Positions 16,219 through 34,434 of a stretch of 34,831 nt of DNA are shown in pieces. The stretch lies in the NCBI GenBank assembly GCA_026396095.1, contig JAPLXK010000009.1, positions 1-34,831 of the forward strand, given 5' to 3'. The notes beneath the pieces were generated by a model. That model was given only the letters and a program-made list of their open reading frames with translations. It did not search any database and was not told where the DNA came from. The DNA is from Candidatus Nealsonbacteria bacterium. GTDB lineage: Bacteria > Patescibacteriota > Minisyncoccia > Minisyncoccales > RBG-13-42-11. Both the position numbers and the translations under genes were made by a program. How positions within the stretch are numbered: position 1 is the first letter of the stretch; each line of letters starts with the position of its first letter.

Positions 16219-16247
16219 TTGACTTTTTTACTCTAATTTGCTATCAT
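16219..16247 (+). promoter_or_regulatory. sigma70 promoter
   Basis: TTGACT-17 nt-TATCAT with extended -10 TG. Confidence 0.7.
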
Positions 16248-16253
16248 TTCCTC

Positions 16254-16325
16254 AGTGAGTGTCCGCTTCGGCGGATCCTACTAAGTTGACACCAGGCCTC
16301 CCTCGAGCGAGGTCTGTTGTTTTTT
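16254..16325 (+). ncRNA. Candidate ~70 nt small RNA or attenuator (RNA1)
   Basis: Follows the promoter; GTCCGC-TTCG-GCGGAT hairpin, GTGTC/GACAC alternative pairing, then a terminator; no ORF. Confidence 0.5.
16293..16325 (+). terminator. Intrinsic terminator
   Basis: CAGGCCTC/GAGGTCTG stem followed by TTGTTTTTT. Confidence 0.7.
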
Positions 16326-16345
16326 AAACAGATTATTTTTGCAAT

Positions 16346-16407
16346 AAAAAAGAGACGGATGAGTTAACTCCAAAACTAAGTTTTTAGTGAGTGCTACCAT
16401 CCGTCTC
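16346..16407 (-). ncRNA. Candidate ~60 nt hairpin small RNA (RNA2)
   Basis: Perfect 10-bp closing stem GAGACGGATG/CATCCGTCTC followed by U6 on the - strand; promoter-like motif ends 6 nt upstream. Confidence 0.45.
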
Positions 16408-16413
16408 AATTAT

Positions 16414-16441
16414 ATTTTAAACCTTATAATAAAATATTCAA
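16414..16441 (-). promoter_or_regulatory. Putative sigma70 promoter for RNA2
   Basis: TTGAAT-16 nt-TAAAAT on the - strand; AT-rich context lowers specificity. Confidence 0.45.
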
Positions 16442-16464
16442 GAATTATGCTAAAATTAAATAAG

Positions 16465-17358
16465 ATGAATATCATTAAAGAACTGCCGGCCATTAAAAAA
16501 AACGTTTCCTTGGCGGAATACACCACTTTTAAAATTGGCGGAAAAGCCAAGTATTTTTTTATTGCCAAAACAAAAGAAGATTTAATTAAAGCCATTTTTG
16601 TCGCAAAAAAATTGAAATTGCAATTTTTTATTTTAGGAGGAGGAAGTAATTTATTGGTTTCAGACAAAGGTTACAATGGGCTGGTAATAAAAACACAAAA
16701 TTCAAACTTAGAAATTAGAAAAAAGGGAACAATAATAAATTTTTTTTGCGGAGCGGGAGCACCGCTGGCAAAATTAGTTTTAGAGTCAATCAAAAACAGC
16801 GCCCAGGGACTGGAATGGGCGGCGGGCATACCGGGCACCGTAGGGGGAGCTATTTTCGGTAACGCAGGGGCTTTTAACGAATCAATGAGTGGTAATATTG
16901 AAGAAGTAGAGGTTTTGGATGTAAGAAAAACGGTCATTAAAAAATTCAAAAATAAAGATTGCAGATTTGAATACCGCAAAAGCTTTTTTAAGAAAAATAA
17001 AAACATTATTATACTCTCGGCAAAGTTAAAATTAAAAAACGGAAAAAGAAAAAAAATTAAAGAAATAATCAAGGAACACCTAGAAAAAAGAAAGAAATTC
17101 CAGCCCTTAAATTATCCTTCGGCCGGTTCAGTTTTCGTAAATCCCAAAACAGGATTAAAAACAGGAGAAATGATCGAGAAGTGCGGACTGAAAGGAAAAA
17201 GAATAGGAAAAGCAAAAGTGTCTGAAAAACATGCTAATTTTATTATGAACCTAGGAAAAGCCAAAGAAAAAGACGTTAAGAAACTGATAAACTTGATAAA
17301 GAAAAGGGTAAAAAATAAATTCGGGGTAATCTTAAAAGAGGAAATAATAAGCATTTAA
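16465..17358 (+). CDS. murB: UDP-N-acetylenolpyruvoylglucosamine reductase
   Basis: TTFKIGG.A, GGGSNLL, GIPGTVGGA..GNAGA, SAGSVF.NP, HANF. Start 16465 preferred; 16447 possible. Confidence 0.95.
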   Translation: MNIIKELPAIKKNVSLAEYTTFKIGGKAKYFFIAKTKEDLIKAIFVAKKLKLQFFILGGGSNLLVSDKGYNGLVIKTQNSNLEIRKKGTIINFFCGAGAPLAKLVLESIKNSAQGLEWAAGIPGTVGGAIFGNAGAFNESMSGNIEEVEVLDVRKTVIKKFKNKDCRFEYRKSFFKKNKNIIILSAKLKLKNGKRKKIKEIIKEHLEKRKKFQPLNYPSAGSVFVNPKTGLKTGEMIEKCGLKGKRIGKAKVSEKHANFIMNLGKAKEKDVKKLINLIKKRVKNKFGVILKEEIISI

Positions 17359-34065: not shown

Positions 34066-34100
34066 AACAAAAAAACCGCTTATCTGGCGGATTTTTTGTT
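34066..34100. terminator. Bidirectional intrinsic terminator between rnhA and rnpB
   Basis: A-tract, CCGCT/GGCGG stem, T-tract between convergent genes. Confidence 0.8.
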
Positions 34101-34434
34101 GTCCCGGCAAGTCTGTAAGCCGAATTCTGTCCTTTGCTTTTGGCAAAGGGGCGACTATCTGTCTGGGCCCTTGATTACTCTCGGGCTCGAGCGAACTACT
34201 TTTGCGCCAAATAAGGATTTAGCCGTTTCATTTTAAAGATTGCTCTTTAAACTCACCCCCTAACGGGGTGCCCGAATCCTTTCGGACTCCGGCGTCTCTG
34301 TTCGCACCTCTAACCTTTCGGTCGACGGCTGTTAGCCGCTACTATTTTATCCTCTTTTTAAAGAGGAGGGTGTTCGGACTTTCCTCCCTCTTTTAATAAG
34401 ATTAAAAGGGGGCAATCGCCCGACTTACCGGGAC
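34101..34434 (-). ncRNA. rnpB: RNase P RNA
   Basis: On the - strand: P1 GTCCCGGTAAGTC/GACTTGCCGGGAC, GAGGAAAGTCCG, ACAGAATTCGGCTTA, ACAGA.AC and TGAAAC conserved regions. Confidence 0.96.

Follow-up and report, generated by a model that had tools for sequence, protein, structure and literature searches.

Judging from their sequences, two small RNAs predicted in a contig of a Candidatus Nealsonbacteria bacterium (GenBank JAPLXK010000009.1; the whole 34,831-nucleotide stretch analysed is called the window) are a conserved, co-evolved RNA-RNA partnership that is absent from the RNA family library Rfam 15. RNA1 on the + strand and RNA2 on the - strand are probably transcribed separately to form a dedicated base-paired complex, which would likely act as a riboregulator of a leader messenger RNA (mRNA), a reading fairly anticipated by the original prediction of a guide/target pair or RNA switch. 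The covariation between the two molecules is unusually clear and makes this RNA-RNA interaction of uncultured bacteria directly testable, and the pair is possibly tied to cell-wall synthesis. In the literature searched, whose scope left subscription papers outside, neither a characterised small regulatory RNA of the candidate phyla radiation (CPR; Patescibacteria) nor this pair was found.

Pairing sites, genes and folds of RNA1 and RNA2

The sequence AGTGAGTG occurs at 16254-16261 and 16386-16393, and ACTAAGTT at 16280-16287 and 16375-16382, both as direct repeats on the + strand; these coordinates and the permuted order of the sites in the two transcripts agree with the original prediction. 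In a post hoc test, at least two complementary 8-mers between RNA1 and mononucleotide-shuffled RNA2 were obtained in 10 of 100000 shuffles, far beyond chance, and at least one in 2446 of 100000. Because the test was made post hoc, and because repeats of eight bases are in any case frequent in this AT-rich spacer, the weight is placed on conservation and covariation, which are strong among relatives and mark both complementary 8-mers as true sites of pairing, as originally proposed.

Helix B, formed by RNA1 CUAAGUY and RNA2 RACUUAG, shows compensatory changes at at least five positions, with about 30 sequence variants. A C-G pair is replaced by U-A in L001, L006, L021 and L026 and another C-G by U-A in L007, U-A is replaced by A-U in L021, L027, L029 and L030 and A-U by U-A in L026, and the end pair is G-C in L007 and U-A in L015. 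Every class-level variant is complementary, and at a pair that is C-G in most relatives the window has a compensated U-A. Across 54 loci (L048 and L070, with weak RNA1 matches, were left out), the median energy of helix B was -14.8 kcal/mol for cognate and -9.5 kcal/mol for swapped partners, the corresponding values for helix A being -14.0 and -13.8 kcal/mol (0 of 5000 permutations for either helix); a contiguous run of at least seven was found in 87% of cognate versus 35% of swapped combinations. Convergent and tandem loci are alike in pairing energy. Helix A is nearly invariant, and its compensated pairs among the 48 loci tabulated (six others, having U at the first RNA2 position, were left out) lie at position 1 (A-U in 34, U-A in five), position 2 (one A-U) and position 5 (three G-C); in L021, L047, L054, L058 and L061, RNA1 has G at position 5. 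At least four lineages show joint changes in all ACUC/GAGU segments of both RNAs, a pattern consistent with a reciprocal exchange of strands that would lead to a four-way junction.

Direct repeats on one strand might also be expected of DNA-level elements, the 8-mers being protein operator sites or chance matches. This explanation is scarcely credible, since wobble pairs and bulges are tolerated, the varying helix pairs including G.U and not A.C, since inversion of the RNA2 unit carries the motifs along with it, and in view of the shuffles described above.

The convergent, non-overlapping genes lie 20 bases apart, each with a conserved -10 box, as expected of the two independent small-RNA genes originally proposed (Table 1). 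The promoter and terminator ascribed to RNA1 were both recovered, the promoter as TTGACT-17-TATCAT with TG and the terminator as a strong + strand signal at 16293-16316 plus a T run; a TTTGCTAnnAT box aligns across 26 RNA1 homologues, and the terminator stem shows double changes at 10 of 10 pairs. RNA1 (fold z -3.4) is single copy in the source genome (670 kb, 57 contigs). The stem of its hairpin H is kept among homologues, with variable sequence and length, and in nearly all of them the 5' seed is folded away by pairing with the stretch ahead of the second arm, so that about 6-7 bases (UAAGUUG) stay free in RNA1 alone. The terminator loop is a palindrome, CTCGAG (16302-16307), which is CUAUAG or CUUAAG in relatives; its self-complementarity, kept within the order and not across the class, may reflect either a kissing dimer or merely a longer stem.

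The - strand promoter-like motif and U6 ascribed to RNA2 were likewise found (TTGAAT-16-TAAAAT), and a -10 box with five or six matches, ending 4-9 bases before the closing stem P1, is present on the proposed strand in 45 of 59 loci and on the other strand in 7 of 59. P1, given as 10 bp in the original prediction, is present and comprises 11 pairs (10 Watson-Crick and one G.U) followed by U6, with double changes at 11 of 11 pairs and a wobble tally of 27 G.U versus 3 A.C pairs, which favours the proposed strand (RNA2 fold z -5.5). The structure alignment was model-based; given the raw MAFFT alignment A1, RNAalifold misaligned P1. An internal helix, P2 (ACUC[A]C/GGAGU, with ACUC/GAGU covarying; U-A 27, C-G 6), is 98% paired and uses the helix A site of RNA2, and the apical loop of the hairpin shows AACUUAG; AAA(G) and UAAC are unpaired and invariant. 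The original prediction thus had the pairing sites right and missed both P2 (ACUC/GAGU), at its first 8-mer site, and the folded seed of RNA1. An apical ACUAA/UUAGU hairpin predicted in RNA2 was dropped, being broken in L007, L021 and L027 while RNA1 compensates.

Table 1. Features of the two RNA genes and of the adjoining murB gene
Feature	Position	Strand	Description
RNA1 promoter	16219..16247	+	-35 TTGACT, 17-nt spacer, extended -10 TGcTATCAT (promoter scan)
RNA1 gene	16254-16325	+	72-nt span, own promoter and terminator
RNA1 arm A AGUGAGUG	16254..16261	+	begins at likely first transcribed base; partner RNA2 CACUCACU
RNA1 variable hairpin H, UUCG loop	16261..16276	+	predicted to be retained in the complex
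RNA1 arm C/B, UCCU + ACUAAGUU	16276..16287	+	partner RNA2 AACUUAGU; weakly here, GGA too
RNA1 intrinsic terminator	16289..16325	+	long covarying stem, then U run
RNA2 promoter	16414..16441	-	-35 TTGAAT (16441-16436), 16-nt spacer, -10 TAAAAT (16419-16414)
RNA2 gene	16346..16407	-	from 16407 to 16346, closing stem and U6
RNA2 closing stem P1	16407-16397 with 16362-16352	-	predicted fold
RNA2 CACUCACU	16393-16386	-	helix A site
RNA2 AAA linker	between CACUCACU and AACUUAGU	-	
RNA2 AACUUAGU	16382-16375	-	helix B site
RNA2 GGAGU	16371-16367	-	followed by UAAC
RNA2 U6	16351-16346	-	own terminator tail
murB	16447..17358	+	303 aa; same-strand RNA2 directly precedes murB in most relatives

Distribution and position relative to murB

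Both halves of the pair were widely found in a DNA search of 60 genomes of relatives. The two RNAs are adjacent in all 30 loci of the order-level set, RNA2 being present in every one of them and RNA1 being recovered by blastn in 26 and by model R2 in the other four, and RNA1 lies near RNA2 in 24 of the 29 loci of the class-level set (E up to 0.08). With a model of RNA2 (R1), one copy was detected in each of 49 genomes among the 151 sampled from the class; in a separate phylum sample of 151 genomes RNA2 was detected in four, all of its own order, and in 0 of about 144 genomes of other classes. A related strain from the same study keeps the orientation and an unchanged RNA2, and its RNA1 differs only in the loop of hairpin H and by compensated changes in stem pairs.

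The original prediction correctly set the pair upstream of murB and overlooked that most relatives have RNA2 as a leader of murB. MurB follows RNA2 on the same strand, at a distance of up to 100 nt, in 18 of the 30 order-level loci and in 5 of the 29 class-level loci; at 14 class-level loci RNA2 precedes other open reading frames (ORFs), the genes downstream of the pair including MurB, a ~485-aa protein and an HPF-like protein. The murB start is the ATG at 16447, which corrects the listed ORF start at 16387, and the neighbours are envelope genes (Polysacc_synt_2, Wzy_C with TPR, MurB and MBOAT). Ten of the 30 order-level loci, among them the one in this window, carry RNA2 and its promoter as an inverted unit; a quick, poorly resolved MurB tree requires seven changes of orientation, at least two of them on well supported branches. 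The contigs of the source study, in which rare variants cannot show, contain no piece with RNA2 in the opposite orientation. The inverted copy shows that selection maintains the pairing even where RNA2 cannot be a murB leader. Because the RNA2 unit is inverted and has its own U6 terminator, the pair would work only in trans in this genome.

In this window the RNA2 promoter abuts the murB start codon, its -35 sequence lying 6 bases from the ATG, and a + strand TATAAT (16425-16430) is found 5 bp from the RNA2 -10 box, so that the two promoters may exclude each other. RNA2 might thus be a cis-antisense RNA to read-through of the RNA1 terminator into murB, or act through promoter competition, with RNA1 competing for RNA2. 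The distance of 36-39 nt from the RNA2 start to the murB ATG in L001, L010, L020, L029 and L030 is also in its favour; this explanation is very unlikely, however, because the RNA1 terminator is strong and the explanation is pure conjecture.

Possible assembly and function of the complex

Alone, each RNA would hide part of its pairing surface, RNA2 being a long hairpin of P1 and then P2. The free bases of RNA1 would catch the RNA2 loop first to form helix B, and pairing would then spread into the 3' strand of P2 to form helix C, opening both internal helices. Finally, the freed 5' end of RNA1 would pair with the freed 5' strand of P2 as helix A, to generate a four-way junction of P1, helix A, hairpin H of RNA1 and helix B/C. 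The permuted order of the 8-mers can be explained by the arms of RNA1 clamping both strands of the upper stem-loop of RNA2; such a clamp on a hairpin is a simpler explanation than the ligation-like splint suggested originally. In most relatives murB or another envelope gene has RNA2 as its promoter-proximal leader, so that the likely output is riboregulation of the mRNA concerned, with a possible part for RNase III, encoded in the genome at C57:13108-13503.

Several points weigh against riboregulation by such a complex. A search for RNA sequencing runs containing this stretch found none among those listed; both transcripts, their ends and their strand are predictions from sequence, and the coexistence of helices A and B/C on one molecule is likewise a prediction, from strand order and covariation. 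Helix C has only three pairs in this window, and P2 and the seed hairpin of RNA1 compete with helix A. Helix A varies so little that few events underlie its covariation, and because all four ACUC/GAGU segments change together, covariation is blind there to whether pairing is intra- or intermolecular. The alignments A3 and A4 were fitted to the models of this analysis itself, the relatives are non-independent, and the permutation tests overstate. Because of the inversion, RNA2 cannot act in cis on murB here or in nine other order-level loci.

It is improbable that RNA1 and RNA2 make up an autonomous RNA device in two pieces, belonging to one CPR class, with a function independent of murB (a scaffold, a sensor of the RNA1 5' end or a catalyst). 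Two hairpins sharing the same stem would then exchange strands reciprocally to build the device, and placement in a leader would be secondary. In its more general form, that the complex itself is the functional unit, a structured RNA in two pieces that serves as protein scaffold, sensor or catalyst and has no part in murB control, the idea is unlikely. It would account for a single-copy, class-wide pair that stays together whatever the downstream gene or orientation, and for the invariant unpaired bases of RNA2, whereas beyond its arms RNA1 has hardly any unpaired bases that are conserved, and RNA2 is in leader position at most loci.

A further possibility, which we also regard as rather improbable, is a decoy or sponge, in which RNA1 regulates other mRNAs and RNA2, with one to several modules, titrates RNA1, or the reverse. 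RNA2 stands alone here with its own terminator, and RNA2-like modules with AUCCCGC...GCGGGA helices on either side occur repeated or nested in L046, L047, L049 and L056 (L047 contains a masked N run). However, CACTCACT is present at only three sites on both strands of the genome, namely RNA2, the RNA1 gene and C54:7502, and no genome site besides the pair has both motifs. The output of a genome-wide duplex scan with the 5' part of RNA1 was dominated by the GC-rich hairpin, and the depletion of target 7-mers, near the 5th percentile of permutations of the same composition, is too weak to use.

Comparison with known RNA families and systems

In keeping with the original view that no recognised family was matched, a scan of Rfam 15 gave no local match better than E 0.28 for either RNA and 0 matches in 20 related loci; the only Rfam 15 match in the window is RNase P RNA, bacterial class A, at 34100-34431 (-) with 119.8 bits. 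A tRNA-like reading was discarded (ARAGORN, 0 genes), as was 6S RNA (no match to RF00013). Signal recognition particle (SRP) RNA was also rejected, with no RF00169 or RF01854 match and no Ffh partner. In the source genome and its order relatives, RF00169 and PF00448 were each found in 0 of 41; PF00448 gave only marginal partial matches in 2 of 151 class and 1 of 151 phylum genomes, and PF02978 and TIGR00959 gave none over the cut-off, with positive search controls and with RNase III and tmRNA detected here by the same tool. The undetected SRP pathway may reflect real loss or a limit of the search.

The T-box leader touches one small RNA, a tRNA, via two separate short helices. RNA2 would likewise contact one small RNA by two separate short helices, but RNA1 is not a tRNA, and no Rfam T-box match was found. 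Enterobacterial-type trans-encoded small RNAs have a 5' seed, their own promoter and an intrinsic terminator, and pair with leaders. RNA1 resembles them in having its own promoter, a seed at its extreme 5' end and a terminator hairpin with a U tail, in pairing that is kept by compensatory change, and in a partner that is a 5' leader in relatives; it differs in having a single dedicated partner next door and a predicted two-arm clamp, and no Hfq gene was found in the source genome.

The closest parallel in geometry may be CopA-CopT of plasmid R1, which, according to PMC10798244 citing Kolb et al. (2000), forms a four-way junction with side-by-side helices. As in that description, the small RNA is proposed here to open the upper stem of the target hairpin, and two intermolecular helices, bridged in this pair by the A-rich linker of RNA2, would lie beside two retained intramolecular stems. 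A leader target of the CopT type is absent here, where RNA2 is inverted, and present in the 18 order-level loci with RNA2 before MurB. Unlike CopA, which is cis-encoded and fully complementary to its target, RNA1 and RNA2 come from separate genes and share 8 + 8 (+3-5) complementary bases, and whereas CopA starts by loop-loop kissing, RNA1 would bind by its two ends around a kept hairpin.
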